Below, in pieces: positions 15,379 to 36,499 of a stretch of 64,000 bases of DNA. The notes under the pieces are model-generated. The model did no database searches, had not been told where the DNA came from, and saw nothing but the letters and a program-made list of their open reading frames with translations. Origin of the DNA: a virus (lineage: Duplodnaviria; Heunggongvirae; Uroviricota; Caudoviricetes). The stretch is from the IMG/VR virus record IMGVR_UViG_2617270980_000003, one strand, 5' to 3'. Numbering within the stretch: position 1 is the stretch's first letter; every line of letters begins with the position of its first letter. The position numbers and the translations under genes are program-made.

Positions 15379-15386
15379 TTCCCGCG

Positions 15387-15815: not shown

Positions 15816-15833
15816 ATGATGAGTATCGTCCTG

Positions 15834-16523: not shown

Positions 16524-16586
16524 CCAGAACGTCGTTCCCGCACCTTTCGTTTTTGCCAGTGGATTTGGTGTGTCATTACCACCTCC

Positions 16587-17000
16587 TTAATTCGTGTACG
16601 TGATCTGGTACGTGATTTCCGCCATCGCCCAGGTGGCCATCTCATTATCACGTTGATAGTTAAAACCGAGTGGGATCAGGGTGTCGATGAGTCCGGAAAG
16701 TGCTGGTACATCATTCAGGGCCGGGAAAATGGTGCTCTCCATCCACATATCCAGCTCTGAATCCGGTGCCTGTGCCCGGATGAAGACAGCAATATGCAGA
16801 ACAGCCTGCCAGTCATCTTCATCCGTCATTTTTCCGGTGTACTGAGCATCACTCAGCCACACCGCCACGGCAGGCAGTTCCTGCGCATCAACAAATGCCG
16901 GAAGCCCGTCAAAAAACGTGGCGCTGTCTCCACACTGTTCCCGAAGGCGTGCCAGTACGACCTGGCGGATTTGTGTATGTCGGTTCATCGGGTCAGCCAT
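16587..17000 (-). CDS. U: Tail terminator U-like
   Basis: 137 aa; ...ATFFDG.PA.FD...PAVAV.L....YTG... resembles lambda U as recalled. Confidence 0.8.
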   Translation of the reverse strand: MADPMNRHTQIRQVVLARLREQCGDSATFFDGLPAFVDAQELPAVAVWLSDAQYTGKMTDEDDWQAVLHIAVFIRAQAPDSELDMWMESTIFPALNDVPALSGLIDTLIPLGFNYQRDNEMATWAMAEITYQITYTN

Positions 17001-20472: not shown

Positions 20473-21805
20473 TCCACGGCATCACTGGTCCGGAATACAC
20501 CGCGGTATACAGTGAAGAACGGTCAAGATCGCGGGGTAGCCTGATAACACCGGATGCCACAGCCTGTTTCAGCCATGCACGATACATCGGGCGGGTGACG
20601 GCACCAATAAACCAGTCCTGCAGGATCAGGTAGCCATCAGTGGATTCAACCAGCTCCTGACGCTGGGCGCTGTAAGTGCCGTTATAGTTGCGCGCTGTAC
20701 TGGAAAAACTCAGACGACTGCCCGCCGCCACGGCACGCAACTGACCATTACGAAAAGTTTCAAGGTTAGGATTGGGGCGATCCGACTTCACCATTCCGAT
20801 TTCTTCGCCGGGTTTCAGATCGTCGTAAATAATGCCCGGCTGAATGGTAAGCTCACGTTCATTCTCCTTTCTGCCATTACCATCCGGTTCATAGCTCTGC
20901 CCGTCGCCTTTCCGGATGTACATCCCCAGAGCAGCGGCGATCCTTGCTGCAGTCAGCTCAGAATCTTCATATTCTTTCAGGGCACTGAGGCGGATCAGCA
21001 CACCGGACAACAAAGACGTCCCGCGCATCTGGTGCAGACGGCGAACAAATTTAAGATGCAGCATTCGCTCTGCATCCACTTCTTTGGTTTCCATCTGCCG
21101 TCCGGATACGGGACGGCTTTTATACACCAGATATTTTTCGGGACGCCCCCAGTCATCAACAAACACGCCCTGATTCAGCCTGTTGCTCTCATCACTGGTC
21201 ATGGGAATAAAGTCCGGCTCGAGCGCCTCCAGCCAGAAATGAACACCGGCAGAAGGCGCCAGGCTGTTTATGCGCCCGGAAACCATCTGGGCAAACACCT
21301 CACCATCGCGCAGCCAGGTACGAAGCATCAGACGTTCCAGCATCGGACGGGTAAACTGCCCGGTGACTTCCGGGCTGACAGACCATTCACTCCATCGGGT
21401 GCGAATCTCCGCAGCCAGGTCACGGGCAATGGCCCCATTGCGTAATACCGGATGTGGCTCGACAATAATCCCGTTTTTCCCCACCACCCGTTCTTCCAGC
21501 TTATCAAATACACCAATAACCAGATCGTGGTTGTTATCAAGGTAACGGGCCTGCTCACGTAACGACACGGCCCCGTACTGGCTTAACTGGTCGGCAGTTC
21601 GGTTCTCCCGTCGGGCTTTGTGTGTCCGCGTCGTTTTTACGGCCTCATAAGCCTGGATCACCGCACGGGAACGCAGCCTTGCCGCTTTCCATCCTGGTGA
21701 AAAAACGCCAATCACATCATCAAGAATTGCCATCAGAACCTCGCCAGCCGGTACCCGGGATGCCCCCGTCGTCGTGTAATCAGAGCCGCAAGGCGGCGCT
21801 CCCAC
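20225..21805 (-). CDS. Portal protein (lambda B-like)
   Basis: 526 aa, between W-like gene and protease/capsid gene. Confidence 0.8.
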   Translation of the reverse strand: MGAPPCGSDYTTTGASRVPAGEVLMAILDDVIGVFSPGWKAARLRSRAVIQAYEAVKTTRTHKARRENRTADQLSQYGAVSLREQARYLDNNHDLVIGVFDKLEERVVGKNGIIVEPHPVLRNGAIARDLAAEIRTRWSEWSVSPEVTGQFTRPMLERLMLRTWLRDGEVFAQMVSGRINSLAPSAGVHFWLEALEPDFIPMTSDESNRLNQGVFVDDWGRPEKYLVYKSRPVSGRQMETKEVDAERMLHLKFVRRLHQMRGTSLLSGVLIRLSALKEYEDSELTAARIAAALGMYIRKGDGQSYEPDGNGRKENERELTIQPGIIYDDLKPGEEIGMVKSDRPNPNLETFRNGQLRAVAAGSRLSFSSTARNYNGTYSAQRQELVESTDGYLILQDWFIGAVTRPMYRAWLKQAVASGVIRLPRDLDRSSLYTAVYSGPVMPWIDPVKEAEAWKIQIRGGAATESDWVRAGGRNPDDVKRRRKAEIDENRKLDLVFDTDPASDKGGSSAATKRQEPQHTDDQPEE

Positions 21806-21951
21806 TCCTGCCGTCCCTGCCGGATCTCAGATAAGTTTTCCATGGTCATCTGCTGACCATTAAAGGTGACGGATTTTCCGTCCAGCACCGCCATTTCAGC
21901 TTCCGTATAACGCTGAATCATGGCTTCGATATCATTCTGGTTCATAACCAT
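21733..21951 (-). CDS. Head-tail connector protein (gpW-like)
   Basis: 72-aa ORF between terminase large subunit and portal. Confidence 0.65.
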   Translation of the reverse strand: MVMNQNDIEAMIQRYTEAEMAVLDGKSVTFNGQQMTMENLSEIRQGRQEWERRLAALITRRRGHPGYRLARF

Positions 21952-24041
21952 CCTCCGGAAGTCAGCCAGGGGTTAACATCGTCAGTTACTGTTTTCTTCC
22001 GTTTTTGTTTTTTAACAGGCGTGGATACCGGTTCCGGTGAGGATGACGGTTCGGTACTGTCCTGGACACACTCCAGCCAGGTCTCCCGGCTCGCCCACTC
22101 CGGTGCATCCGGCCAGCGGATCTTTTCGTATCCATGCAGAATGACCAGAGCCTCGGCATACACCATCAGGTCAAAAGCTTCGTTGGCACCGCGACCCGGC
22201 TTACTCCATTTCCCGTCACTGCTCCGCTCTTCATACGTCAGTTCGTCGTAAAACCAGCTCCCCAGCCAGTCAGGGAAATGCACATAGCCTGGACCTGGCG
22301 AGTCACGCCATAACGCGTTATTCACCCGGTCTTTCAGGGCATCCGTCTGAAGAAGCCAGAGCGGCACATCACCTGCGGCCTGCGCCCGGCGGCCCGTTCG
22401 TCCGGTGTTATCAGGGAATGTACGGCTGATCAGTTTTGCGCGCCGGATGCTGTCACCCTTAAACAGGTAAATACGTTTACCAAGGCCATCACGACGGCAA
22501 CGACGCCAGAATTTATAGGCATTATCAGTGACCCCGTCTTCACCGCCGGAGTCCACCGCCATTGCCATCAGTCGCATTTGTTGAGAAGGATCGGAGGCCA
22601 GCGGCCAGCTTTTATGAAAAACATCCGTCAGCAGGACATCCCAGTCTTCCGGATAGCTGGCCGGATCAATTCGCTGGCTCTCCCCGTCGCAGTCACTGCG
22701 CAATGACTGCGTGATGTTGTAACGATCAATAATCCAGCGTTCGCCACGACTGCCATAGCCCGTTACCTGAACCACAAAACGGCGATGACGTCCCGCCTGC
22801 ACATCCACTGTCGCCACAAGGAAATTAACGCCATCCGGCACACTGCGGGAAGGAACTAGCTCTGCCCGCTGCTCAAGCAGTTCACTTTTTCGTTGCTCCA
22901 TGCTGGCACGAGGAAGATAAGGCAATCCCCAGTCGGTGTTGATAACCGCCCTGAGTGTTTCTTCGCTTCCTGTCGCTTCATACTCCTGTTCTGCAGTCAG
23001 TAATTTGTAAACCAGTTGCGCCCAGGTCTGATACGCAGCAGCTGGCCCTTCCATCCAGAAACTGGCGATACGGGAGCGGCGCGGTTCACCGGAAACGTTG
23101 CCGTTACGATCAATAACCTGACCTTCACGCAACCAGACTCCTGCACTATTGAGCTCACGCTTTTTCTCCGCAGTGATAATGCCGCTGCAGTGCGGGCAAA
23201 GTAGATACGCCGCCTCACTGGCTTTAAAGGGATCCGGTTCATTACGGTAGCCGGTCATGGCATCCATGGCTGGCTGAAAATATTCACCGCAGTGCGGACA
23301 TGACCAGTACCAGCGGCGGCGGTCACCACGATTGTAAAGGGAAAGAATACCAGTCGTCGGTGGCGCTTCATGAGGCGACTTACGTCGCCATTTGCTGTCG
23401 CAGATGTCACGTCCCGGCGAGCTCTCCACCAGAGTCATCCCGGCGGACATAAATGTGGTGGTACGTTTTGAGGCCAGGGAGAAACCATCACCCTCGCTGT
23501 CGATATTCTCCGGAAAACGGTCGTAATCGGTTAAGGCGACAAACCGGTAATCCGACGACGACATAATGTTGACCGAGGGCCAACCAATTTTAAGGAACGA
23601 GCCATCCCTGAACGTCTTATCATGGACATTATTGTCGTTACGACGTGGACTCATTCTTTTCTTTACCGCCGCACTGCTTCTGAACGTTCTGTCGAGGCGC
23701 TTTTTAGAATGCTCGCGGGCCTTATCTTCGGTCATCTGCACAACGAGCATGTCCGAAGGATCGCAAACGATGGTATAGACAATCCATCCATCGATCAGAC
23801 CAATGGTCTTCCCTGTTCGCGCAGGACCAACAAAAATCACCGCATCGTATTCACGCGATGCCAGGCAGTTCATGGGCTCAATGATGTAGGGTGTCAGTTC
23901 AGGATCCCATGGCACCGAGTTACCAGCCCCCTTGGGAACACGCATGAATTTTTTAACAGCCTCCGAAATCGGCATGCGACGTGGTGGGGAAAATCCTGCC
24001 GATATGTCCCTTCCCAAATTTCGGGCTGATGAAAAACCCAT
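21942..24041 (-). CDS. Terminase large subunit (GpA-type)
   Basis: 699 aa; Walker A-like VGPARTGKT; position after small subunit. Confidence 0.85.
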   Translation of the reverse strand: MGFSSARNLGRDISAGFSPPRRMPISEAVKKFMRVPKGAGNSVPWDPELTPYIIEPMNCLASREYDAVIFVGPARTGKTIGLIDGWIVYTIVCDPSDMLVVQMTEDKAREHSKKRLDRTFRSSAAVKKRMSPRRNDNNVHDKTFRDGSFLKIGWPSVNIMSSSDYRFVALTDYDRFPENIDSEGDGFSLASKRTTTFMSAGMTLVESSPGRDICDSKWRRKSPHEAPPTTGILSLYNRGDRRRWYWSCPHCGEYFQPAMDAMTGYRNEPDPFKASEAAYLLCPHCSGIITAEKKRELNSAGVWLREGQVIDRNGNVSGEPRRSRIASFWMEGPAAAYQTWAQLVYKLLTAEQEYEATGSEETLRAVINTDWGLPYLPRASMEQRKSELLEQRAELVPSRSVPDGVNFLVATVDVQAGRHRRFVVQVTGYGSRGERWIIDRYNITQSLRSDCDGESQRIDPASYPEDWDVLLTDVFHKSWPLASDPSQQMRLMAMAVDSGGEDGVTDNAYKFWRRCRRDGLGKRIYLFKGDSIRRAKLISRTFPDNTGRTGRRAQAAGDVPLWLLQTDALKDRVNNALWRDSPGPGYVHFPDWLGSWFYDELTYEERSSDGKWSKPGRGANEAFDLMVYAEALVILHGYEKIRWPDAPEWASRETWLECVQDSTEPSSSPEPVSTPVKKQKRKKTVTDDVNPWLTSGGWL

Positions 24042-24049
24042 TATTCCTC

Positions 24050-24607
24050 CTAGAGACTCTCTCCTTCCTCATCAGGAATTAATTCAGCAGCACAAGCCTC
24101 GTAGGATTTTTCCTGAAGAGTGTATCGCAGGTCATCAATGGCCTGCTGTACAACGCCGACGGCCTGAGGAGTCAGGGCGCAATCGCGTTCAAGAACATCC
24201 GGAATTGTCTCCAGAACCTGGACGACAGCCTTTCTCATGGACGAATAGACGATGACTACTTCATCAACGGGGATGAGTTTTCGCTGCTCCTTTTCCAGCT
24301 TGATCCTTTCATTTTCAGATTGGTACCAGTCCTTTCTCTCTTTCGGCTCCATACGGGATGGATCATGAACAGAGTCTGCTGCCTCATGCTTCACACTAAA
24401 CAGGGCTGGCCCGACATGCTGCAGGGCGTAAACGGGGTTCCCCCTGATAGTCGCAGCCACAGGAGTGTTGGCCGCGAGGAGCCGTTTTTTTACTGTGTCC
24501 CGGTGAAGCCCAAAGGCCTCAGCGATTTTAAAAACACTCCAGTAATAAGCATCACCGATCCCGCTCACATTTGACATAAGCAACTCCATCTGGCAGGTGA
24601 AAATCAT
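24050..24607 (-). CDS. Terminase small subunit (Nu1-like); probable start ~24577
   Basis: N-terminal HTH-like ...YYWSVFKIAEAFGLHRDTVKKRL...; immediately upstream of large subunit. Confidence 0.6.
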   Translation of the reverse strand: MIFTCQMELLMSNVSGIGDAYYWSVFKIAEAFGLHRDTVKKRLLAANTPVAATIRGNPVYALQHVGPALFSVKHEAADSVHDPSRMEPKERKDWYQSENERIKLEKEQRKLIPVDEVVIVYSSMRKAVVQVLETIPDVLERDCALTPQAVGVVQQAIDDLRYTLQEKSYEACAAELIPDEEGESL

Positions 24608-25139
24608 GTTTATTTATATATTTCAATTAATTGCAAACTGGTCTAATGACAGGGAGAAAAAAATATTGTACAGGTGAAAAGAGAAATAACTTTTAATTAT
24701 CAATAAATTACCAAACATGCTGCCGCCGCCATGGAAATGCAAAAACTAGCCTTTTTCCGCGACGCTCCCGCCCCGTGGCAGGGACCCCCACTGGGAGGAC
24801 CCGACAGCCTGACAACCGTGACGAGCATCTGAAACAGAGCTTTACATAATGGCATGGGGATAATTCAGAAGGACATCACAGCATGCCCACACAAATTAGT
24901 GTGAGTGTCCTGTTTCTTACTACGCGCAGGACTGACGAGCATGAGGGGAAAATACGAGAACCGAAATGCCTTATCTTCAGAAATGCAGCCGGCATCCGAA
25001 CTGGACGATATTGTAAATTCACCTAAATACGAGGCATTGCTGTAGTTGAATTGCATTGCTGTATTAGCCTGACAGTGACAGAATACGATATTGACTCTGT
25101 CACTTGTGAAATGGTCAGAATGGTTAGCAGTTATGGTGA

Positions 25140-25346
25140 TCAGTCAACCACCAGGGAATAATCCTTCGTATTCTTATCGTGCTTTACTAACGCGGCCTCA
25201 ATTGCCCTGAATGCTTCCAGAGACACTTGATGTTCTATACATGCAATTACAACATCCGGGTAACCCATCGAAATGGTGCTATTAAGCATAGTTTTTACAC
25301 GAACCTGCTCCTGGGAGGGGGCATCAGTGTATTGTTCTTTATGCAT
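25140..25346 (-). CDS. hypothetical small protein (lambdoid moron region)
   Basis: 68-aa ORF between terminase and gns-like gene; no motif. Confidence 0.3.
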
Positions 25347-25639
25347 TTTGTCGCTCCATGCGTTTGCTCTTCACTTACGGCTAAAAATATAACGTCAAAT
25401 CACTCAGCATGAAAGAGTTAAAGATTCAGCGCGTTTCCCTTACATAATCTGTCGTTTGTATTCTCTTCAGGCATACCGGAAAGACTAGGTATTGTCACAC
25501 AACCAATACCATCGACAATCGAGATTTATACCTATTCGGTAATGTTTAAATATAACAAAACCCCGTAAAAACGAGGTTTATGGGTAATTTGTATTGTTGA
25601 ATAGCATCTGATGAGAAATTGATGCTAATACTAAACAGA

Positions 25640-25813
25640 CTAGATTAAATCAATCTTGATATCATAGCTTTCAAGACCAGTCATTTTTTCCCGTGCAGTA
25701 AACTGGATACTGGTAACTTCTTTCCCGGTCTTTTTCTTAAGCTCAATGATTTTTTTTGTTATATATTCAGAAATATCTGCTTCTGTTTTTGTTTTTAACT
25801 CTTCAATGTTCAT
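25640..25813 (-). CDS. GnsA/GnsB-family small protein
   Basis: From ATG 25813: MNIEELKTKTEADISEYITKKIIELKKKTGKEVTSIQFTAREKMTGLESYDIKIDLI, strongly resembles E. coli GnsA/GnsB (57 aa) as recalled. Confidence 0.7.
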   Translation of the reverse strand: MNIEELKTKTEADISEYITKKIIELKKKTGKEVTSIQFTAREKMTGLESYDIKIDLI

Positions 25814-25985
25814 CATTTCCTCTTTTAGTCTGTTATGACTTTCCTGGTACACAGTAGTGTCAATTATATGGAGCAAACGTATAAAAGATAAGATGAAACA
25901 TCGCAATAATCAACATACGACGGTCTAAATTTCACACAAACAGATAAAGATGATTATCATTTATTATCAATGCATTAGAATCAAA

Positions 25986-26216
25986 TCAATTCAAGAGTCT
26001 CATTGCTGCTTCCAGAATTTCTTCTGAAGTTACATGTCGATCCGCTGCTACATAAATGACTTTATGATCTCCGGTCAGAGATGGAAACCCTGCAGCCATT
26101 ACAGTGAGGTGTGTTGTTTCGCCATTTGGATATTCACGCATGATGGTGTTAACTCCGGTCATCACTGGCACTACCATTGCTGGTTCAGAGTTAAAAAAAA
26201 CTATTATTTTTTTCAT
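25986..26216 (-). CDS. YmcE/YnfN-like small protein (76 aa from ATG 26216)
   Basis: Neighbour of the gns-like gene, as ymcE-gnsA / ynfN-gnsB pairs in E. coli; sequence identity not confirmed. Confidence 0.4.
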   Translation of the reverse strand: MKKIIVFFNSEPAMVVPVMTGVNTIMREYPNGETTHLTVMAAGFPSLTGDHKVIYVAADRHVTSEEILEAAMRLLN

Positions 26217-26266
26217 AATGTTACCGTAATATGTGAGTATCCATCGACTAGACACTAAGCAAAAAA

Positions 26267-26290
26267 GCTCCCGAAGGGGCTTTTTTTTAA
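26267..26290. terminator. Bidirectional terminator-like hairpin near the P2-like prophage right junction
   Basis: AAAAAA-GCTCC-cgaa-GGGGC-TTTTTTTT. Confidence 0.5.
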
Positions 26291-26356
26291 GATTTAACCA
26301 AATGAAATAAAAGGATTTATTTCAGGTCATGTCCACTTACCGACCACATCTATTCA

Positions 26357-26381
26357 AAAGCCCCGCAATGCGGGGCTTTTA
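26357..26381 (-). terminator. Rho-independent terminator immediately downstream of ogr
   Basis: GCCCCGC-aat-GCGGGGC 7-bp stem flanked by A-run and T-run. Confidence 0.6.
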
Positions 26382-26630
26382 TCATATAGTCAAACTTAAC
26401 TGATCGCGTCCATAGTGCGAAGCGGGAAAGACACCTGCGGGAATAAAGTCAGGCGCTAATTTATCGCGCCGCTCACGCTTGGTGACAATTTTTTCAACAC
26501 TGTTAAGCGTTGTGAATGACAAGCCGCATTCCATATTCTGGCACTGATGGTATTGGCGAATCGTTACTTCACTAAGAGGCTTACTGGTGCGAGTGCGGGC
26601 CGTAGCGCCGCAGTGTGGGCATTTGAACAT
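26382..26630 (-). CDS. ogr: Ogr/Delta-family zinc-finger late-gene transcription activator
   Basis: MFKCPHCGA...RYHQCQNMECGLSF with four-Cys pattern, as in P2 Ogr (recalled); located at prophage end next to D. Confidence 0.85.
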   Translation of the reverse strand: MFKCPHCGATARTRTSKPLSEVTIRQYHQCQNMECGLSFTTLNSVEKIVTKRERRDKLAPDFIPAGVFPASHYGRDQLSLTI

Positions 26631-26668: not shown

Positions 26669-27916
26669 CTATTCAGTTTCTGCGATCCAGTCAGATATTT
26701 TTGCTTCAAAGTTAAGCTGTGTTGTGAATCCATTACTATCAACATCATGCTGTACCTTGCTGATTATCCAGTCCTGGGCGTCAATATCAGCTTTAAAACC
26801 GGTTACCGTTGCGTGCATTTCCGGGTACAACTCCGCGCGCCCGCGCGCCAGGGTGATCGAAAACTCCGCCGCGCCGCGCTGTAACTGCTGCCACTTTGCC
26901 GCCGCTGCGCGCCTGGCGGCTTCTTCGTTCTGGAAGGTTTTACGCATAATAAAAACGTTACCTTCAGCGCCTTCAATATAGTCACCTTCCCTGCTGCTGC
27001 TCTTATCCGCTTTTTTAGTTGTGGCACGACGACGGACACTGACCTTTTTCTTTTTCCCGTAATTCAGATCAAGCCAGTACGCGCGGACGCCGGTATAAGC
27101 GTCACGATCAGCAACGCGGAAGCGGTGCCGGTCGCCACTGCTGCGCGTGATGGCAATCGACGGAATAGCCTTCCCTGATGCTGTGAAACCACCACCCGGC
27201 ACGATAAATAACAGACTGCCATTTTTTACCGTGGCGATGGCCCCTAACATTTCCGCCATTCTGGTCAGAAATGACATATCGCTTTCCTGAGTCTGATCGG
27301 CGTGGTCAATTTCCACATCCATCAACAGATCGCTGATTTGCGGCGTCAGGTCATACCGTTTTGCGATAGCGGACACAACCCGCTCCACAGTCACATCATG
27401 CCAGGAGACTTCACGCTTCACGTTAAACTCTTCTCTGAAATCTGCACTCCTGGCGGTCACCGTGATACGGTCTGGCGGCCCGTCATGCGCGACTTCATCA
27501 ACCGTGTACACGCCCTTATAAACCAGCGCTTCACCCATCCACCCCAGCCAGAAAGACAACTCAGCACCGCGCAGCGGAAGGGCAACGCCTCCATCAGTAT
27601 CATCCAGCTCTAATGTCAGCTGATCGGCGTCAAATCCCCTGTTGTCCGTCAGGCTGATGGATATCACGCGATCTGATAATTCTGTTAACACCTTTCCGCC
27701 CTGCCGGACGCTGAATGCCGGTATTTTTAACGCCTCCGTCAGGATGTCATCGACACCGCCAGCCGCGCCCGAAATCATACTGCTGATCACTGAAACACTC
27801 ATACACCCTCCCGTTTTGCTGAATAATTCCACGCGGGCGCGCGTGGGAGAATTCGTTTTAGTTGTCAGAGAGATAGCACAACCAGAAAGGCGTGAAGCTG
27901 TTACGTCAATCAGCAA
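26669..27916 (-). CDS. D: P2 gpD-like tail protein; likely true start ATG 27802 (377 aa)
   Basis: ...ISLTDNRG.DADQLTLELDDTDGG...DRDAYTG...FSITLARGRAELYPE... parallels P2 D as recalled; track start 27916 is TTG. Confidence 0.85.
   Translation of the reverse strand: MLIDVTASRLSGCAISLTTKTNSPTRARVELFSKTGGCMSVSVISSMISGAAGGVDDILTEALKIPAFSVRQGGKVLTELSDRVISISLTDNRGFDADQLTLELDDTDGGVALPLRGAELSFWLGWMGEALVYKGVYTVDEVAHDGPPDRITVTARSADFREEFNVKREVSWHDVTVERVVSAIAKRYDLTPQISDLLMDVEIDHADQTQESDMSFLTRMAEMLGAIATVKNGSLLFIVPGGGFTASGKAIPSIAITRSSGDRHRFRVADRDAYTGVRAYWLDLNYGKKKKVSVRRRATTKKADKSSSREGDYIEGAEGNVFIMRKTFQNEEAARRAAAAKWQQLQRGAAEFSITLARGRAELYPEMHATVTGFKADIDAQDWIISKVQHDVDSNGFTTQLNFEAKISDWIAETE
27863..27880. promoter_or_regulatory. 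Ogr-type late-promoter activator site (TGT-N12-ACA) between divergent D and FI
   Basis: TGTcagagagatagcACA; ~70-85 bp from both D ATG (27802) and FI ATG (27944/27956); embedded in a ~30-bp element repeated at 45024-45056. Confidence 0.6.
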
Positions 27917-27943: not shown

Positions 27944-29146
27944 ATGGTGACAAACATGTCTGAGACACGTTTTCACGGTGCTCGCACCAAAGAAGAAACC
28001 GACATCACGAAGGTAATTAACGACATTGACTCCAGCGTCATTGGCGTAATTGTCATCGCTGATGACGCGGACGAAGACGCATTTCCACTCAACACCCCAA
28101 CGCTTATCACGCGGCCTCAGTCGATGCTGGGCAAGGCGGGGAAAACAGGGACGCTGTACAAAACGCTGAAAGCCATTTCAGACCAGGCAAGCGCGAAAGT
28201 CATTGTTGTTCGTGTCGCCGCAGCCAAGCCGCTGGAAGGCGACGCAGAAGCGGAAACGCAAGTGCAACTGATTATCGGTGGCTCTGATGCTGAAGGTAAC
28301 TACACCGGCATGTATGCGCTTCTGACTGCCGAACAGAAGACACAGTATCGACCGCGCATCCTGGCGGTTCCTGAATACGACACCGAAGAAGTGACGGCAC
28401 AGCTTTGTGTGATCGCCAAACAGCTTCGCGCCTATGTTTATGCAAGCTGTAACGGCTGCAAGACGCTGGCGGAAGCCCTCGCGTATCGTAAAACCTTCGC
28501 ATCACGCGAACTCACGCTGATCTGGCCTGACTACATCGCATATAACCAGGTGTCCGGGGAAAATGAAGTATTCCCGGCCCCGGCCTATGCGGTAGGGCTG
28601 CGCGCGTTTATTGATAACCAGTACGGCTGGCACCGCTCGCTATCTAACATTGCCGTCAGCAATGCGCTTGGCATTTCGAAGGATGTTTTCTGGGCGCTTC
28701 AGGCTGAAGACAGTGACGCACAGACGCTGAACAACGCCGAAATCACCACCATCATCAAGCGTAATGGCTTCCGTTTCTGGGGTAACCGCACCACAGACAC
28801 CAATGAATTTGTGTTTGAGGTGTACACCCGCACGGCGCAAATCCTGGCGGACACCATCGCAGAGGCGCAATTTGAAACCATTGACGGGCCACTCACCCCG
28901 ACCAACGTGAAAGACGTGGTGAGCGCGATTAACAAGAAACTCAGTGCACTGGTCACAGCTGGCAAGTTGCTTGGCGCGGAAGCCTGGTTTGACATCGTGG
29001 ACAACGGAACCGCAAACCTGATTCAGGGCAAAGTGGCGATCCGCTACAAGTACACGCCGGTGCCACCGATGGAAGATTTGACGCTGATCCAGACGTTCAC
29101 CGATGAATATTTTGAAGGCGCGTTTTCGTCTCTGGGGAGTAACTAA
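27944..29146 (+). CDS. FI: Tail sheath protein (P2 FI-like)
   Basis: 400 aa; ...GFRFWGNRT...YTRTAQ..ADT..EA... and C-terminal ...YTPVPP.E.LTL... match P2 FI as recalled. Confidence 0.9.
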   Translation: MVTNMSETRFHGARTKEETDITKVINDIDSSVIGVIVIADDADEDAFPLNTPTLITRPQSMLGKAGKTGTLYKTLKAISDQASAKVIVVRVAAAKPLEGDAEAETQVQLIIGGSDAEGNYTGMYALLTAEQKTQYRPRILAVPEYDTEEVTAQLCVIAKQLRAYVYASCNGCKTLAEALAYRKTFASRELTLIWPDYIAYNQVSGENEVFPAPAYAVGLRAFIDNQYGWHRSLSNIAVSNALGISKDVFWALQAEDSDAQTLNNAEITTIIKRNGFRFWGNRTTDTNEFVFEVYTRTAQILADTIAEAQFETIDGPLTPTNVKDVVSAINKKLSALVTAGKLLGAEAWFDIVDNGTANLIQGKVAIRYKYTPVPPMEDLTLIQTFTDEYFEGAFSSLGSN

Positions 29147-29659
29147 ATGGCGATTCCACCAAAACTACGGCTGTTCACCTGCTTTGTGAACAGCGTGAAC
29201 AATATCGGCAAAGTGACATCTGTCACGCTGCCAAAACTGACCCGCAAAACTGACGACTATCAGGGCGGCGGGATGATTGGCTCTGTTGCTGTCGATCTCG
29301 GACTGGATAGCGGCGCGCTTGATGCCACGATGGTTGTAGGCGGCCTGGTTCAGGCTCTGCTACTGGAATACGGCGGCGATCTGGACGGAACGCTTATCCG
29401 ATTCACCGGGGAATATTACACATCCGGCGAGAGTCAGATCGTTGACGTGGAAATGCGCGGCAAATTCACCGAAATCGACGGCGGCGAAAGCAAGCAGGGC
29501 GAAGATACGTCCGTAACCTACGCCATTAAAAACACGTACTACAAGCTGTCAATTGACGATAAGCCCATCTGGGAAATTGACCTGCTGAACTTCGTGTACA
29601 AACGCAACGACGAAAATATTTACCCTTCCCGCGTAATGTCTGCGCTGGGCATGGGATAA
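29147..29659 (+). CDS. FII: Tail tube protein (P2 FII-like)
   Basis: 170 aa, directly after sheath gene. Confidence 0.85.
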   Translation: MAIPPKLRLFTCFVNSVNNIGKVTSVTLPKLTRKTDDYQGGGMIGSVAVDLGLDSGALDATMVVGGLVQALLLEYGGDLDGTLIRFTGEYYTSGESQIVDVEMRGKFTEIDGGESKQGEDTSVTYAIKNTYYKLSIDDKPIWEIDLLNFVYKRNDENIYPSRVMSALGMG

Positions 29660-29712
29660 CTAACAACCACTACAGGCGCGGCATCGGGTGATGCCGCCCG
29701 GAGATTAAAACG

Positions 29713-30024
29713 ATGACCGAAGAAAACACCGTAACACTGACACGCCCGATTAAACGCGACGGCAACGAAATCAAAACCATCACGATCACTGACGAAGTGA
29801 AACAGGCTGGTACCCTGCGCGGCCTTCGCCTGGTGAACGTGATGAATATGGACGTGGACAGCATCAGCACCCTGCTAACCCGCTGCACTTCCCCGCGCCT
29901 GAAGCTCAAAGAAATCAGCGAAATGGCAACATCTGACTTTGTTGAACTTTGCGAGGCGCTCACGCCTTTTTTAGCGCCGAAGGAGCCTGGCACGAAGAAC
30001 GAGACGGAGACGGAGAGCGAGTAA
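29713..30024 (+). CDS. E: Tail assembly chaperone E
   Basis: 103 aa, between tube and tape measure genes. Confidence 0.8.
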   Translation: MTEENTVTLTRPIKRDGNEIKTITITDEVKQAGTLRGLRLVNVMNMDVDSISTLLTRCTSPRLKLKEISEMATSDFVELCEALTPFLAPKEPGTKNETETESE

Positions 30025-30185
30025 ACGCGCCCCACTTTGACCTGATCGATGATCTGGTTGCTGATATAGCAGTTATTTTCAACTGGCCGCCCTCAGAGGT
30101 TTTCACTATGTCCCTGAGTGAGGTGATAGCCTGGCGTGAACGGGCGGCTATCCGAAGCGGAAACAGTGAAGATGAAAGACCTTAA
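29713..30185 (+). CDS. E+E' fusion product via -1 programmed frameshift at T_TTT_TTA (29967-29973)
   Basis: Slippery heptamer TTTTTTA in E frame; the -1 frame stays open to 30185 (...FFSAEGAWHEERDG...), overlapping the T start. Confidence 0.6.
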
Positions 30186-33144
30186 TATCCGTGTCGCCTT
30201 CAGTGCGATTGATAAGTTAACCCGCCCGGTAAATGCCGCCCGCAACTCAGTGGGCGGCTTATCTGAATCCCTCAAAAAAACACAATCGTCTATCAAAGAT
30301 CTGGAAACGCAATCCCAGGCATTCAACCGCCTGAATGAGCGCGTTAAAAAGACATCCCAGCAACTCACCACAACACAGCGAGCCTTTGACGGCCTGAATA
30401 AAGCACAGAAAAACGGCACGGTACTAACCGACGCACAGCGCGAGCGCATGACGGCACTGGCAGCGAAACTTGATCGCCTGAATGCCAGCCGGTCACAGGA
30501 GACAGCAAAACTCCAGCAAGCGTCCCAGGCGCTGCGCGCGCACGGCGTTTCACTGGCGGGCGGCGATCGCACAATTCAAAGCGCTATCAGACGCACTGAG
30601 CAATACAACCAGACGCTTGAGAGAGAACGGCGACAACTTGCCGCAGTCACCAACGCGCGCGCCCGTTATGACCGTCTGAGCGCCACAGCGGGCAAATTGC
30701 GCACCGGCGGCGCGGTGGCGATTGGCGCAAGCGCGGGAGCGGGCTACGCTGCCGGACGCTTCCTGGCCCCTGCCGTGGGTTTTGATGAGGAAATGTCGCG
30801 CGTAGGCGCACTGACCCGCCTGGATAAAGGCGATGAACAGTTTGCCGCCCTGCGCGCCCAGGCCAAAAAACTTGGCGCTGAAACCGCATTTACCACGCGA
30901 GACGCCGCCAGCGGGCAAGCCTTCCTGGCAATGGCTGGCTTTACACCACAGTCAATTCAGGCTGCGCTGCCTGGCGTTCTGAATATGGCGCTAGCCGGTG
31001 GCATGGATCTGGGTGAGTCCGCTGATATCGGTTCAAACATCCTGACGCAATTCAAGCTGTCATCAGATCAGATGGACAGGGTTGGCGATACGCTAACAGC
31101 CGCATTTACCCGTACCAATACCGACCTGCGCGCCCTGGGCGACACAATGAAATACGCGGGGCCAGTGGCGGCTAATCTGGGTATTAGCCTGGAAGAGGCA
31201 TCCGCTATGGCGGGGATGCTTGCCAATAACGGTCTGCGCGGCAGTGACGCGGGTACAGCATTACGTTCCAGTCTATCCCGCCTTGCTTCACCACCAAAAG
31301 CCGCGGCTGATGCTCTGAAAGAGCTAGGCGTGTCGGTTGCCGACGCCAACGGGAAAATGCGCCCGATGGAAACGGTACTGTTAGACCTTTTCAAAGCCAC
31401 ACAGAAATACGGGCAGGTTGATCAGGTATCTTTCTTCAAAAATATCGCCGGTGAAGAGGCCTTTGTGGGCCTCCAGACGCTGGTACAGGCGGCAGGCTCG
31501 GGAGAACTACAAAAGCTCACAAAAGAACTTCAGGGCGCTGCCGGTGAATCCGCTACCGTCGCAAAAAAAATGGCGGACAACCTGGGCGGGGATCTAAAAG
31601 AACTCGATAGCGCCTGGGAAGCATTCCGTATCCAGATTGAAGAACTGGCGGACGGCGCACTGCGAAAACTCACCCAGGCACTGACCGGCACGATCGGCGT
31701 GATGACTGAATGGGCGAATAAGAATCCGCAGCTATCAAAAACCCTTCTGGCTGTTGGCGGCAGTGTGCTGGCCCTCACCGCCGGGATTGGCGCAACGTCC
31801 CTGGCTATTGGCTTACTTCTGGGGCCACTGGCAAAACTTCAACTCGGCTTTGCCCTGCTAACCAGCGGGAGCGGGCTGGGTGGCGCGGTGACACTGTTCA
31901 GCCGCCTGGCTGGCGTTATTTCCGGGCCGCTTGGCGGCATCCGTGGCTGGGGTGTCGTCTTCAGTAGAATGACCGGCAACGCCGGGAAACTGGCTGGCGC
32001 GCTTGCCCCATTGAGAGGACTGCTTGCCGCCGCGTTTATCTCACCAGGTGCCGCCCTGGGCGGAATTGTAAAAGGGCTTGGTAGTCTCCTGCTTCGCCTG
32101 ACCGGCATACCTGCAATCATGGGGATCGCTAGCTCGGCCCTCTCGATGCTCGGCGGCGCGCTGTCATTGCTGTTAAGCCCGATCGGGCTGATTGGCGCGG
32201 CCTTCATTGCCACAGGGTTGCTTATCTGGCGATTCTGGGAGCCGATCAAAGCCTTCTTTGCGGGCTTCTTTGCCGGTGTAATGCAGGCGCTTACGCCGTT
32301 CCGTGATGCCTTCGCCGGACTGGCCCCCGTCTTTGATGTGATCTCAAATGCCGTTTCTCAGTTGTGGCAGTGGTTCAGCAACCTGCTTTCACCAATGACG
32401 ACCAGCAAAGAGACATTGGATAAATGCGCAAGCGCTGGGGAGACGTTCGGCAAAGTGTTTGGCCTGGCAATTCAGGGGCTAATGTTACCTCTGACTGGAT
32501 TGGCCAAAATGGTTGGCTGGATACTTGAAAAGCTGGGGCTGATTCCGTCCGGGATTGAAGCGGCGAAAGCAAAAGCGGAGAAAGTGCAGAAGGAACTCAC
32601 ACCGGCAGGATTGGCTATGCTGCAGGACAAGGTTGGCACGCTCACTGTCGATATGAAAGCAGTAACCGCGCCACCTATCGCCCCACCATCACCAGTGATT
32701 GCTGTTGATACGGGAACTCAACGGCGGTTACAGAAAATTGCGGACAATACCGGCGGGATGCTGGATGCAACCAAAAAGCGGATCGGCCCTGGCGATATCG
32801 TGTTTAAGAATCTGCCCCGCGCATTAGCCGTCCACGGCGCATGGCAGGAAGCACAATCACCCCCAGGCGCAAACCTGGCCCAACTTAGCGCGCGCCCGGT
32901 TATCGCGGCGGCATCAGCACCGATTAAACCGGCAGTTGAAGTACAGGCTATTAGCGGGCAATCCAGTAAACAAGCCAGCAAACCGGCGCAAAACACCGCT
33001 CCTGATGAAATACATATTCACATTCATATGCACGGCGATCTCAGCAACGACGCCCGCGACATTGCACGGATGGTGACTGATGCAGTTGGGGCAGAACTTA
33101 ACAAGCGTTCCCGCTCTGGTAGCAGTTTCAGAGACAAAGATTAG
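30136..33144 (+). CDS. T: Tail tape measure protein (P2 gpT-like); track start is GTG, first ATG at 30172
   Basis: 1002 aa, coiled-coil N-terminus, Gly/Ala/Leu-rich hydrophobic middle region. Confidence 0.85.
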   Translation: MNGRLSEAETVKMKDLNIRVAFSAIDKLTRPVNAARNSVGGLSESLKKTQSSIKDLETQSQAFNRLNERVKKTSQQLTTTQRAFDGLNKAQKNGTVLTDAQRERMTALAAKLDRLNASRSQETAKLQQASQALRAHGVSLAGGDRTIQSAIRRTEQYNQTLERERRQLAAVTNARARYDRLSATAGKLRTGGAVAIGASAGAGYAAGRFLAPAVGFDEEMSRVGALTRLDKGDEQFAALRAQAKKLGAETAFTTRDAASGQAFLAMAGFTPQSIQAALPGVLNMALAGGMDLGESADIGSNILTQFKLSSDQMDRVGDTLTAAFTRTNTDLRALGDTMKYAGPVAANLGISLEEASAMAGMLANNGLRGSDAGTALRSSLSRLASPPKAAADALKELGVSVADANGKMRPMETVLLDLFKATQKYGQVDQVSFFKNIAGEEAFVGLQTLVQAAGSGELQKLTKELQGAAGESATVAKKMADNLGGDLKELDSAWEAFRIQIEELADGALRKLTQALTGTIGVMTEWANKNPQLSKTLLAVGGSVLALTAGIGATSLAIGLLLGPLAKLQLGFALLTSGSGLGGAVTLFSRLAGVISGPLGGIRGWGVVFSRMTGNAGKLAGALAPLRGLLAAAFISPGAALGGIVKGLGSLLLRLTGIPAIMGIASSALSMLGGALSLLLSPIGLIGAAFIATGLLIWRFWEPIKAFFAGFFAGVMQALTPFRDAFAGLAPVFDVISNAVSQLWQWFSNLLSPMTTSKETLDKCASAGETFGKVFGLAIQGLMLPLTGLAKMVGWILEKLGLIPSGIEAAKAKAEKVQKELTPAGLAMLQDKVGTLTVDMKAVTAPPIAPPSPVIAVDTGTQRRLQKIADNTGGMLDATKKRIGPGDIVFKNLPRALAVHGAWQEAQSPPGANLAQLSARPVIAAASAPIKPAVEVQAISGQSSKQASKPAQNTAPDEIHIHIHMHGDLSNDARDIARMVTDAVGAELNKRSRSGSSFRDKD

Positions 33145-33156
33145 GAGAGCAAAACA

Positions 33157-33645
33157 ATGATGATGGTTTACGGAATGTTCGTCTTTGAGTTAAAAACCAT
33201 TCCCCACCAACAATTACAGCAGTCAAAGACATGGCGGCATGTAAAGAACGAGCGCATAAACCGATCGGCAAAGTGGCAATACATTGGTGCAGGTGACGAT
33301 CAGATTACCTTATCCGGTGTTTTGTACCCATCAGTGACCGGCGGTAAGGTGAGTCTAACTGTGCTCGATACACAGGCCTACACCGGACGCCCCTGGCCTC
33401 TTATCAGCGGCACCGGGCGGATCTATGGCATGTATTCGATAACGCAGCTTCAGACCACCGATACTGAATTTGACCAGTATGGGGAGCCGAAGAAAATAGA
33501 ATTTACGATCACGTTTCAAAGGCAGGATGAAGACCTGCGCGAAAGCCTCCAGTCTTCATCAGTGAGTGATTTACTCGGCAACCTGCAAAACACAGCCAAC
33601 TCAGCGCTGAATAATATCAGCGCCGCCGCATCCAGTCTGTTTTAA
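33157..33645 (+). CDS. U: Tail protein U (P2 gpU-like)
   Basis: 162 aa, MMMVYGMFVFE..., follows tape measure gene. Confidence 0.75.
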   Translation: MMMVYGMFVFELKTIPHQQLQQSKTWRHVKNERINRSAKWQYIGAGDDQITLSGVLYPSVTGGKVSLTVLDTQAYTGRPWPLISGTGRIYGMYSITQLQTTDTEFDQYGEPKKIEFTITFQRQDEDLRESLQSSSVSDLLGNLQNTANSALNNISAAASSLF

Positions 33646-33660
33646 ACAAGTAAAAATATA

Positions 33661-33688
33661 CCCCTCGGATTGGTTTTCACCGAGGGGA
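33661..33688. terminator. Hairpin between U and the acyltransferase moron
   Basis: CCCCTCGG-12 nt-CCGAGGGG; T-rich run only on the minus-strand side. Confidence 0.35.
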
Positions 33689-33744
33689 GCAACAAGAGAC
33701 CTAGCTCTAATTTTGTTCAATCATGTGTAAATTGTGCAGACTAA

Positions 33745-34782
33745 ATGATTGTCCTTAGAATTTTTGTAAGTAAAATAACCACAATTTTTCCTAATTGCGC
33801 GACTAGACTCTATATGAAAAACCTTTCCTCAATTGATTACGCAAAACTTTTCTTTGCGTTTTGTATCATTTTTATACACACAGACATTTTAGGCGGCAAC
33901 AGTAATTATATAGGATATGTTACTTGCCAGGGACTGCTAAGGATTGCAGTGCCATTCTTTTTCATTACTAGTGGATATTTTTATTTTTCTGTAATGCAAA
34001 AAAATAAAATTAAAAAATGGTTTTCTCACAATATAAAAACCTATGCTCTATGGACGCTTCTTTACTTACCAATAATACTAGGATTAGTTGGTTTTATTAG
34101 GGCGGGTAAGCCTTTAGCGACAGACCTTACATATTTATCTCTAAATGCAGTATTTGGATTTTGGCACTTATGGTTTTTCCCTGCCCTGATAGTATCGGCA
34201 TTATTAACATTACTTTTAGCTAAGCTAAAAGATCGCACATTAATAATCATATGCTGCATACTTTATACGTGCGGCACGTTACTTCAATATCGCGCAAATT
34301 ATTCCATTGACATAAATCGTGACATATGGTCTCTCGCTACAGTTTTCTTTTCCAGAAACGGTCTTTTCATGGGTTTTCCATTGTTTATGCTTGGATACCT
34401 TATAAATAAAAATAACATAAGAAATAACAATACATATTTACTCATTGGTTCCATTATTTTGGTCATCATTGAGGCATCCGTAAATTATTCATATGGCACA
34501 TATACCTTTGATATGCTTTTTTCACTTCCATTCGCTGGTGTTTTTGTTTTTTTAAAAGTTCTAGATATCACCCTGAAAACAAAAAACACCTTCACAATTC
34601 GCGAGCACTCAAAAAACATATATCTTATACAAATCTATGCCATTCAGTTTGCAAAACAATTTGCATCTGATTGGTTAGTCATAACAACAATCGCATGCAC
34701 TATTTGCATTAGCTATTCAATAGCTAATATCATTAAAGATAATTTAATTGCAAACTTTAGACTAAAAAGCCTATCAAATTAA
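33745..34782 (+). CDS. Acyltransferase family 3 (OafA/Oac-like) integral membrane protein; probable start ATG 33814
   Basis: Strongly hydrophobic multi-span protein; ...IDYAKLFFAFCIIFIHTD... N-terminal signature; region looks AT-rich by eye; sits between U and G. Confidence 0.7.
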   Translation: MIVLRIFVSKITTIFPNCATRLYMKNLSSIDYAKLFFAFCIIFIHTDILGGNSNYIGYVTCQGLLRIAVPFFFITSGYFYFSVMQKNKIKKWFSHNIKTYALWTLLYLPIILGLVGFIRAGKPLATDLTYLSLNAVFGFWHLWFFPALIVSALLTLLLAKLKDRTLIIICCILYTCGTLLQYRANYSIDINRDIWSLATVFFSRNGLFMGFPLFMLGYLINKNNIRNNNTYLLIGSIILVIIEASVNYSYGTYTFDMLFSLPFAGVFVFLKVLDITLKTKNTFTIREHSKNIYLIQIYAIQFAKQFASDWLVITTIACTICISYSIANIIKDNLIANFRLKSLSN

Positions 34783-35234
34783 TCCTCAGGGATATCAGGC
34801 CAGATAATGTCGGGGGCTTTTGATGTGTCAATACGCATTAATAGCACCCGATATTTCTTCCACTTCGCAAGCTGAATAACTTCATCATCGGTTGAAATAC
34901 CAGCTTCAATCGCATCCTGCCGCCACGCAATTTCTGTACCTGCATTTTCAGCCAAGTCTTTTTTTTGCTGTATAGCTAACGCAATTAACTGATCGGCTGT
35001 AGGCTCTGATACATCAACCCATACAGGCTGACCGGAAGCGTCGCCTCCTCTACCTTTTCCTTCTGGCGGCCTTCCTGTGTATTTCTGATAAATATCAGAT
35101 TCAACTTCAACAATGTCATCAGGCCATGTATTCGTTTTTTCATAGTCTGATTTCATTGACTCAAAAAAGAATGAGTTATTCTTAGCACTGAAATATATAT
35201 TACTAAACATAATTAACACCCCACACCAAAGCAA
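34779..35234 (-). CDS. Tail fibre assembly protein (P2 gpG / Tfa-like)
   Basis: ORF immediately downstream of tail fibre gene; stop shares the TTAA with the convergent acyltransferase stop. Confidence 0.7.
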   Translation of the reverse strand: MLWCGVLIMFSNIYFSAKNNSFFFESMKSDYEKTNTWPDDIVEVESDIYQKYTGRPPEGKGRGGDASGQPVWVDVSEPTADQLIALAIQQKKDLAENAGTEIAWRQDAIEAGISTDDEVIQLAKWKKYRVLLMRIDTSKAPDIIWPDIPED

Positions 35235-36499
35235 AAGAATGGTTTTGACGCAGCGACGCCTGTTCTTTCTAATAAAGAAACCTGCATATCTCGATCGCTT
35301 AATCTTTTAACTCCAGCAATCGCCGACGCTGCTGCATCACCAGCCACATTGCATGGCAAAATACCAAAACAGCGAACAGGCCAACCAATAGGAAAAGGGG
35401 CTGAAGCCCAGCCGCCACCATCAGTATTCCCCCAACACCACTGTAAAATTATTCCATTTGGAAAACGCACCCAACCGGCATCAGCCATTACCTGAGTAAA
35501 GTCTGTATTTTTCACATACCCCTGAATGCCCCAATCATTCTGAAAAATCAATTTTTTCACATCAGCATTCATTGTGAATGCATTAACTCGACGATCGGAG
35601 ATCTCCCCTGATGGAGATAAAGCAAAATCAATATAGTTCGCGCCGTTTCCCATTATGCCGCAAATAATCGACGACATAATTGCTCCACCAAATGAAAAAT
35701 CCAAACCACATGCACTTCCATTTTCACTGCTTTTATTTTTGATATGAATACCTGAAAAACCACTCTCTTTTTCCACGATCATTTCGTGTCCGACTGCTGA
35801 GATAATACCTTCAACAATCACATCACCAGTAACCCTCCCACCAGAAGCAGGTAACGCATCGGCTGCTAATTGAACTGTTTTATCCAAACCAAGGTTTTTG
35901 ATAGCCTCTCCAACCAACCCGGCCTTAATCAATTCTTTAAGAGCATTTTCAATCAACAGGTACTGGCTATGCGGATTAGCGGTGTCAACGTGCTTTTTTA
36001 TCGCGTTGTCTGTATAGGTTTTCACCTCAATTACAGCACTATCAACATACTGCCGGGTTGCCAGCACAACGGACGGATCAACTTTCAGGGTAACGGCATC
36101 AGTGCTCGATACCGTGAGCATCATCCTTATAACCTGCGTACGGCCTGATCCTTCCTCTGTTGTGGCCTTGTACGTCTCCGGGCAGTTAGCCACAGCAATC
36201 AAGATACCATCAGCATCAAAGAGTCCTATTTCACGAATCCACCACCCGCCAACGGATTCAGGAATAATCTGTTCCGCAATAATCTGGCTGTCGTTTTTAT
36301 CGTCCACTGACAGCGAGTTAAGCTGGGCGCGGCGCACCTCGTTAACCAGCGCTGTCTGTGCCTGGCTTGGTGTTGGTGATTTGCCGCCGCCGTCGCCAAC
36401 TGCGAGCGAGGTGATTTCTAACTTCTCACCCAGCGCAGCCATATTTGATAATTTTGCCGCCCCCTGAGCAGTCAGCAGGGCAAAGAATTTAGCCGCCAT
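35213..36499 (-). CDS. H: Tail fibre protein (P2 gpH-like)
   Basis: N-terminus ...AVGDGGG...GGWWIREIGLFDADGILIAVAN... matches conserved P2 H N-terminal domain as recalled. Confidence 0.85.
   Translation of the reverse strand: MAAKFFALLTAQGAAKLSNMAALGEKLEITSLAVGDGGGKSPTPSQAQTALVNEVRRAQLNSLSVDDKNDSQIIAEQIIPESVGGWWIREIGLFDADGILIAVANCPETYKATTEEGSGRTQVIRMMLTVSSTDAVTLKVDPSVVLATRQYVDSAVIEVKTYTDNAIKKHVDTANPHSQYLLIENALKELIKAGLVGEAIKNLGLDKTVQLAADALPASGGRVTGDVIVEGIISAVGHEMIVEKESGFSGIHIKNKSSENGSACGLDFSFGGAIMSSIICGIMGNGANYIDFALSPSGEISDRRVNAFTMNADVKKLIFQNDWGIQGYVKNTDFTQVMADAGWVRFPNGIILQWCWGNTDGGGWASAPFPIGWPVRCFGILPCNVAGDAAASAIAGVKRLSDRDMQVSLLERTGVAASKPFFCFGVGC

Follow-up and report, generated by a model that had tools for sequence, protein, structure and literature searches.

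An AT3-only membrane acyltransferase beside the tail-fibre assembly gene of an Escherichia coli P2-like prophage: a probable lysogenic-conversion gene

In phage P2 the Z/fun region is a variable slot following gene G; its cargo is dispensable, is expressed by lysogens and has effects on other phages. Here we analyse a gene for a membrane acyltransferase that lies beside the G-like gene of a P2-like prophage of Escherichia coli, in a stretch of 64,000 nucleotides from IMG/VR record IMGVR_UViG_2617270980_000003 (this whole stretch is referred to below as the window). In P2-like phages the junction between G and FI is a recognised variable site for accessory genes (PMC3573123), and acyltransferases of the AT3 family are already known as cargo of temperate phages. 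The published positional precedent is NeaT (c0970) of prophage phi-b0847 in E. coli CFT073, a PF01757 protein encoded by a gene of 30% guanine plus cytosine (GC) at 'moron position 2', between G and FI and in the opposite orientation (Wiles et al. 2013, PMC3573123). NeaT is needed for fitness in bacteraemia, and alters aggregation, swarming, production of curli and cellulose, and association with macrophages; lipopolysaccharide (LPS) is nowhere mentioned in the main text of that report (PMC3573123). Other phage-borne family members have defined effects on phage infection. Acetylation of the O-antigen by Oac and OafB blocks the cognate phages (Sf6 and BTP1, respectively), and Oac serves as a model for serotype conversion and superinfection immunity (PMC9558356). 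In the mechanistic model for AT3/TmAT proteins, cytoplasmic acyl-CoA is passed through a pore and its acyl group delivered near a histidine of helix 1 on the outer side (PMC9833829, PMC12423673); this catalytic histidine is part of the R/K-X10-H motif defined in PMC9558356 and PMC9833829.

The window gene is best read as encoding a stand-alone, AT3-only transmembrane acyltransferase, a lysogenic-conversion accessory gene of the prophage whose product likely acylates O-antigen or LPS. We put the probability of this reading at roughly 0.55. The gene is a rare addition to the known phage cargo of this family, and already carries the annotation 'acyltransferase family protein'.

The first-pass annotation of the window described an acyltransferase_3-like membrane protein with several spans, and this is borne out by both profile and model. 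A profile search matches residues 28-324 of the protein, as first called, to positions 2-322 of the 326 in PF01757 (Acyl_transf_3) with 68.5 bits, against a gathering cut-off of 31, and an E-value of 7.1e-19. This is the sole Pfam domain; the protein stops at residue 322, directly after helix 10, and has no SGNH domain. The AlphaFold2 model, built from an alignment of 121 sequences, has ten long helices, with a predicted local distance difference test score (pLDDT) of 91 and a predicted template modelling score (pTM) of 0.91. Taken with the hydropathy and positive-inside topology, the model gives an AT3/TmAT fold with ten membrane helices and with N- and C-termini predicted to be cytoplasmic. 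Positive-inside counting finds 10 Lys and Arg residues in the cytoplasmic loops (12 when K67 and K68, where helix 3 meets the cytoplasm, are included) and 4 in the periplasmic ones. Since these counts favour a cytoplasmic N-terminus, H22 at the end of helix 1 is placed on the periplasmic side. A profile search of PDB sequences returned chance matches only, and PADLOC gave no defence-system match for the protein.

K11-X10-H22 in transmembrane helix 1 fits the R/K-X10-H motif: H22 is invariant in 121/121 aligned sequences, and position 11 is Lys or Arg in 16 of the 17 sequences of a smaller alignment (A1), being Gln in the homologue P0041. R43, R181 and E220 are at least 90% conserved in the 121-sequence alignment, and the set of invariant or near-invariant positions comprises R43-x-x-V46-P47-F-F-F50, W120, R181, G194 and E220. 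At the periplasmic end of helix 5, Q158-Y159-R160-x-N162-Y163 is invariant in the close family and, judged by sequence, is a candidate counterpart of the periplasmic Tyr194 of OafB (PMC9833829).

The gene itself and the control elements proposed for it are as follows (coordinates in the window, followed by strand).

33814..34782, plus strand: coding sequence of the AT3-only membrane acyltransferase, 322 amino acids plus stop.
33745..33813, plus strand: 5' extension of the open reading frame as first called, probably untranslated and overlapping the promoter-like element.
33709..33813, plus strand: upstream DNA conserved with the cassette and containing a sigma-70-like promoter (promoter scan, six-locus alignment and blastn).
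33661..33687, minus strand: GC-rich, terminator-like hairpin (CCCCTCGG, an 11-nucleotide loop, CCGAGGGG, then UAUAUUUUU).

The open reading frame of 33745-34782 on the plus strand (345 amino acids), which had been taken as the gene, is uninterrupted and real, but its start is most likely the ATG at 33814, giving the protein of 322 residues. This choice rests on four points: the equivalent of ATG 33814 is the start assigned by the Prokaryotic Genome Annotation Pipeline (PGAP) to the copy in E. coli ES1, which is 99.2% identical; an N-terminal MKN(L/F/I) is found at this position in all homologues, every one of which is called from the MKN start; locus L014 has no upstream in-frame ATG; and the promoter-like hexamer pair falls within 33745-33776. 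The start codon at 33745 was dropped on the PGAP start in ES1, the promoter overlap and the starts of the homologues.

The gene was also rightly described as AT-rich. Its coding sequence has 32.2% GC (29.8% at third codon positions), and GC along it runs at 0.30-0.36, against 0.50-0.63 in the tail genes to the left and 0.51-0.58 in the baseplate genes further to the right. The low-GC island is sharp, at about 33650-35900, and has the same extent as the largest block shared with other loci in blastn comparisons. Its composition is shared by the family, the nine homologous genes having 31-36% GC, and all nine are intact and without stop codons. Ratios of nonsynonymous to synonymous divergence (dN/dS) are 0.08-0.14 over pairs with dS from 0.05 to 2.5 (0.135 at dS 0.61 and 0.08-0.13 in more divergent pairs); the ES1 pair yields 0.28, a figure derived from only 8 nucleotide differences. 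The low ratios and the intact homologues together indicate that purifying selection keeps the gene.

Upstream, the promoter scan predicts TTGTCC at 33749-33754, a spacer of 16 nucleotides and TAAAAT at 33771-33776, matching the consensus at 9/12 positions. Transcription is predicted to start near 33783. When the DNA preceding the gene is aligned across six loci on different phage backbones, TTGT and AGTAAAAT show no variation. Conservation runs from about 105 nucleotides before the ATG (near 33709) onward and is lost further upstream, and the blastn block shared with the canonical P2-like locus opens at the same position, 33709. An own conserved promoter-like element, together with an orientation opposite to the late genes, bears out the accessory character proposed for the gene and fits a conversion gene expressed in the lysogen.

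The hairpin on the other strand lies beyond this element. Folded as minus-strand RNA, 33661-33687 forms a stem of 8 base pairs with a minimum free energy of -16.7 kcal/mol, and the run of U occurs on the minus strand only; the terminator scan missed it because its loop exceeds 8 nucleotides. It looks like the intrinsic terminator of the late V-to-G operon, displaced past the inserted gene. Neither inspection of the sequence nor the terminator scan revealed a terminator between the convergent acyltransferase gene and G. With the terminator-like hairpin beyond the acyltransferase gene, late transcripts would cross the whole of that gene in antisense before ending.

Relatives of the gene are few. 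Among 5.8 billion clustered proteins only nine clusters show 46-99% identity, all others being at 36% or below, and of 1.84 billion representatives at 50% identity only two exceed 500 bits, with the next at 185 bits. One of 5426 complete E. coli genomes, that of strain ES1, carries the gene, and a distant blastn search likewise found ES1 only. The cluster at 90% identity to which the window protein belongs is recorded from about 100 contigs. The gene was unmatched in 50,697 phage genomes by both megablast and tblastn, and 185,579 species-representative genomes yielded only relatives from Rhodobacter at about 30% identity. The prophage backbone, compared with Klebsiella phages, matched over only 17% of its length, at 73% identity.

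Where the relatives are found is informative. P0004 (69% identical) lies in a canonical P2-like prophage, precisely between G and FI and on the opposite strand, thus in the true Z/fun slot, and P0007 (60%) adjoins G in an E. coli P2-like remnant. P0003 (72%) and P0005 (68%) adjoin the chaperone gene in myoviruses with different sets of tail and baseplate genes, while P0006 (67%) has an open reading frame for a Gp53-like fibre tip on one side and the chaperone gene on the other, with a WavE LPS-core gene and a resolvase/invertase close by. The abutting, convergent arrangement of acyltransferase and chaperone genes recurs in five other loci, and in every phage locus the gene is convergent with the late gene G. 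Outside phages, P0009 (46%) is encoded between hisI and gnd in the Pantoea stewartii chromosome, and the nearest outgroup homologues, P0010 (28%) and P0012 (35%), are encoded by the terminal genes of polysaccharide clusters containing Wzx, Wzy and glycosyltransferase genes. In the metagenomic Wzx/Wzy cluster containing P0012 (L027, 7001-9106) that gene is followed in tandem by a second Acyl_transf_3 gene of the same length (348 amino acids).

The P0006 contigs merit separate description. In L016 (1-5325), as in L017, both from E. coli, the order is resolvase/invertase (minus), two small open reading frames, WavE (minus), Gp53-like tip (plus), acyltransferase (plus), chaperone (minus) and fibre (minus). 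The acyltransferase gene thus stands at the site expected for the second chaperone (U') of an invertible fibre switch of the Mu G-segment type. No invertase crossover repeats were found in L016, a contig of only 5.3 kb. This layout raises the possibility that receptor masking may be coupled to fibre phase.

In the window the neighbouring structural genes are these.

33157..33645, plus strand: gpU tail gene, the left neighbour and the last of the inverted FI-to-U block (PF06995 Phage_P2_GpU, 134 bits; ES1 annotation).
34779..35210 (or 35234), minus strand: tail-fibre assembly (chaperone) gene, like P2 G (PF02413 Caudo_TAP, 114 bits; ES1 annotation).
35213..36499, minus strand: tail-fibre gene, like P2 H (PF12571 plus PF21882).

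The acyltransferase gene and G meet tail to tail, their coding sequences sharing 4 nucleotides and their stop codons 2. The P2-like prophage starts at about 26295 and its gene order is ogr and D (minus); FI, FII, E, E', T and U (plus); acyltransferase (plus); and then G, H, I, J, W, V, S, R and onward (minus). Relative to canonical P2, the FI-FII-E-E'-T-U block (27944-33645) is inverted in place, with D (26669-27916) and ogr on the opposite strand. Because of this inversion the acyltransferase gene, having stayed beside G, has U and G rather than FI and G as neighbours. The Z/fun position claimed for it therefore holds on the G side, whereas on the other side the neighbour is U and not FI. Since the 69%-identical homologue of a canonical P2-like prophage has G directly on one side and FI on the other, the position can, on sequence comparison, still be regarded as the G-proximal Z/fun slot. 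The broader assignment to a moron slot beside the tail-fibre assembly gene of a P2-like prophage agrees with the ES1 annotation and with the P0004 locus.

The inversion also leaves D and ogr on the other strand, and D must therefore have a transcript distinct from that of FI-to-U. This inverted arrangement is shared by E. coli ES1 (97-98% identity), an IMG/VR contig derived from an isolate (99.99%) and a metagenomic viral contig (94.5% over 13 kb, that is, up to 5.5% divergence). Its presence in three other sequences makes it a stable feature of a small lineage. Long inverted repeats were sought at the ends of the inversion and none was found.

Sequence shared with other loci extends well beyond the acyltransferase gene. 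In blastn comparisons, the DNA from 33814 to 35781/35834 (about 35800) forms one collinear block with loci L014 and L006 (those of P0003 and P0007) at 67-71% nucleotide identity. This block spans the acyltransferase gene, G and the C-terminal 200 or so residues of the fibre, and is so extended in three loci. Shorter matches link 33709-34934 with the canonical P2-like locus and 33813-34862 with the P0005 and P0006 loci. The acyltransferase gene, its promoter and the 3' end of G thus recur on at least four myovirus backbones, and protein comparisons distinguish two classes of chaperone and fibre tip, with each of which the acyltransferase is associated. The shared blocks indicate that the recombining unit consists of promoter, acyltransferase gene and 3' end of G, joined in one class by the whole of G and the receptor-binding tip. 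Within the fibre gene, GC is 0.42-0.44 as far as about 35800 and thereafter 0.47-0.52 and higher. By sequence, the 3' part (approximately 35213-35834, encoding the C-terminal receptor-binding tip, Gp53-like_C) belongs to the low-GC cassette and the 5' part to the P2-like backbone.

If the gene acts as proposed, the enzyme would be made in the lysogen. Acyl-CoA, most likely acetyl-CoA, would enter the pore from the cytoplasm, as judged from the mechanism of AT3 proteins, HGSNAT and OafB, and, close to H22, the acyl group would be handed to the hydroxyl of a sugar at the periplasmic face. A Wzy-type surface polysaccharide is suggested as the acceptor by the outgroups in Wzx/Wzy clusters, the his-gnd site in Pantoea and the WavE neighbour; in E. 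coli this would most plausibly be the O-antigen. Such a Wzx/Wzy-type acceptor, most likely LPS O-antigen, would be acylated while linked either to undecaprenyl or to lipid A-core. Modification of the receptor, or masking of the glycan that the linked fibre tip recognises, would lower adsorption of this phage and its relatives, and would change the lysogen's serotype or surface properties. During lytic growth, V-to-G transcription would run antisense through the gene up to the hairpin at 33661-33687 and may damp its expression.

A more ambitious version of this proposal would see an exchangeable host-range cassette (fibre tip, chaperone, receptor-masking enzyme and its own promoter) moving among unrelated myovirus backbones, with the glycan recognised by the linked tip as substrate and the antisense overlap with the late operon serving as a switch, on in the lysogen and damped in the lytic cycle. 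We advance this tentatively, considering it rather less probable than the basic assignment.

Several observations weigh against acylation of O-antigen or LPS as the function. The RXXR site on the cytoplasmic face of helix 3 reads H72-N-I-K75 and is thus degenerate: in the close family K75 is invariant and the first position is His, Gln, Ser, Ile or Asn, whereas more distant relatives in the alignment have R/K-x-x-R/K there. Only one of the two motif positions retains a basic residue. In Oac, by comparison, RXXR is essential (PMC9558356). Similarity to Oac is at superfamily level only (BLASTP E-value 0.019 over 57 residues), and the PHROG O-acetyltransferase family phrog_3333 scores the window protein at 23 bits and Oac at 230. 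With these figures, the lack of an SGNH domain and the absence of any tblastn match in the phage genomes, the earlier label 'Oac/OafA-type' is not supported by sequence or architecture. Neither the protein nor any close homologue has a more specific name than 'acyltransferase family protein'. AT3-only enzymes may depend on a partner protein (PMC9558356), and the scan of neighbouring genes turned up none of the SGNH type. The promoter is a consensus-level prediction, and inspection of the sequence before ATG 33814 revealed no evident Shine-Dalgarno sequence. The linkage to the fibre module could merely reflect a recombination hotspot. Finally, tests with lysozyme, polymyxin and serum revealed no phenotype for NeaT, and no substrate was identified for it (PMC3573123).

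This last point leads to the most serious competitor, in which the window protein is, like NeaT, a factor of fitness and behaviour that acylates another envelope glycan, such as enterobacterial common antigen (ECA), colanic acid or capsule, poly-N-acetylglucosamine (PNAG) or cellulose, peptidoglycan or periplasmic glucans. The host would gain through aggregation, biofilm or immune evasion rather than phage exclusion, and the fibre neighbourhood would be no more than a permissive site of insertion and recombination. NeaT itself occupies the same slot in the same orientation, with behavioural phenotypes and no substrate found, and the G/FI junction is variable whatever its cargo (PMC3573123); AT3-only enzymes are known, moreover, for ECA (WecH), PNAG (IcaC) and other glycans (PMC9558356). 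Set against this, the window protein is no orthologue of NeaT, BLASTP aligning 19 residues and hhalign the N-terminal half only; its nearest outgroups belong to clusters for polysaccharides made of repeat units by Wzx/Wzy; and its gene co-travels with fibre-tip and chaperone modules across backbones. We regard this explanation as quite possible, though the less probable of the two, and it is compatible with acylation of O-antigen or LPS.

The remaining alternatives appear improbable. The best NCBIfam match of the protein is to the membrane part of VanT, and 'serine/alanine racemase' is the source label of several distant homologues, which could indicate a role other than glycan acylation, such as transport of a small molecule (serine). 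Yet the two VanT scores, 68.6 and 48.3 bits, cover the membrane part only and are far under the respective cut-offs of 900 and 675; the racemase domain of VanT is absent from the window protein; and the VanT membrane domain is itself AT3/TmAT, without a settled function (PMC12423673). The conserved His and the pore residues are kept and the outgroups lie in polysaccharide clusters, so a VanT-like role is very unlikely. Equally hard to sustain is the notion of an inert or decaying AT-rich passenger, retained solely by hitch-hiking alongside the tail-fibre genes, shut off (for instance through H-NS) and functionless in its host. Its strong AT bias, its presence in 1/5426 E. coli genomes and the lack of an evident ribosome-binding site would suit such a passenger, but dN/dS of 0.08-0.14, intact reading frames in all homologues, and invariant catalytic residues and promoter elements speak strongly for function.

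Should O-antigen acylation by the window protein hold, the serotype, the phage susceptibility and possibly the immune recognition of the carrier E. coli would be altered in a way unseen by typing of O-antigen gene clusters. Of most interest beyond this is that the gene is linked, in the manner of a cassette, to the fibre-tip and chaperone module on unrelated myovirus backbones.

Two further features of the window lie outside the acyltransferase region. From about 1 to 26295 lies a lambdoid prophage (terminase, portal, ClpP/capsid fusion, DUF1441), which directly adjoins the ogr end of the P2-like prophage; its 20000-26500 portion matches common E. coli prophages at 99.8% identity. The corresponding prophage end in E. 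coli ES1 adjoins fieF instead. At P2 'moron position 1', which separates portal gene Q from replication gene A, two plus-strand genes at 48308-49657 and 49937-51088 encode a KAP-family P-loop nucleoside triphosphatase (NTPase) and a YaaC-like protein. In PADLOC the KAP NTPase scores 250 bits against PDC-S20, a candidate defence system, and has weaker matches to PifA and QatA; by sequence this is likely to be anti-phage defence cargo.

The solved TmAT structures, HGSNAT and GWT1/PIG-W, are eukaryotic proteins of 13-14% identity that use different acceptors. Sf6 Oac (OacA), OacB/C/D and PhiV10 Oac resemble the window protein in being AT3-only products of temperate-phage accessory genes. In Sf6, oac (15624-16625, minus strand) is convergent with, and directly follows, the tailspike gene (13719-15590, plus strand), and the window enzyme likewise adjoins receptor-binding genes in opposite orientation; Sf6, however, is a P22-like podovirus and the window prophage a P2-like myovirus. 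Salmonella OafA and OafB (GtrC of BTP1) share the AT3 domain and the R/K-X10-H motif, are borne by prophages or their remnants and protect against cognate phage by acetylating the O-antigen (PMC9558356, PMC9833829). They are AT3-SGNH fusions of about 600-640 amino acids with an 11th helix and an SGNH domain essential for transfer, whereas the window protein has 322 residues and no such domain. Likeness to P2 Z/fun is positional only, and in the window the tail operon that flanks the slot opposite G is in inverted orientation. The 'acyltransferase 3' prophage SPC-P1 of Salmonella Paratyphi C was set aside as a precedent, being described as short-tailed with P22-like G+C content and nowhere called P2-like.

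NeaT remains the closest in situation. Both proteins are AT3-only, of about 320-340 amino acids, encoded at about 30% GC in a P2-like prophage beside and convergent with G, overlapping its 3' end, and with an own promoter; both genes are rare, NeaT occurring in 9/5426 E. coli genomes and the window gene in 1/5426. In CFT073 (L013, 33423-34914) the NeaT gene is convergent with the tail-fibre assembly gene and shares 17 nucleotides with its 3' end. Even so, the two are not orthologous: the BLASTP alignment of 19 residues has an E-value of 7e-4, hhalign gives a probability of 98% over 147 N-terminal columns only, there is no DNA similarity in gene or upstream region, the fibre tip and chaperone are also different, and the neighbouring FI-to-U block is inverted in the window. 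Two different AT3 subfamilies have consequently come to occupy the same junction, and their common tail-to-tail geometry suggests a shared constraint or insertion mechanism there. The repeated arrival of different AT3 subfamilies at the junction after the chaperone gene points to a general pairing of receptor-binding with receptor-modifying functions in temperate myoviruses, a pairing usable for prediction of phage receptors and relevant to phage therapy and to the design of O-antigen vaccines.

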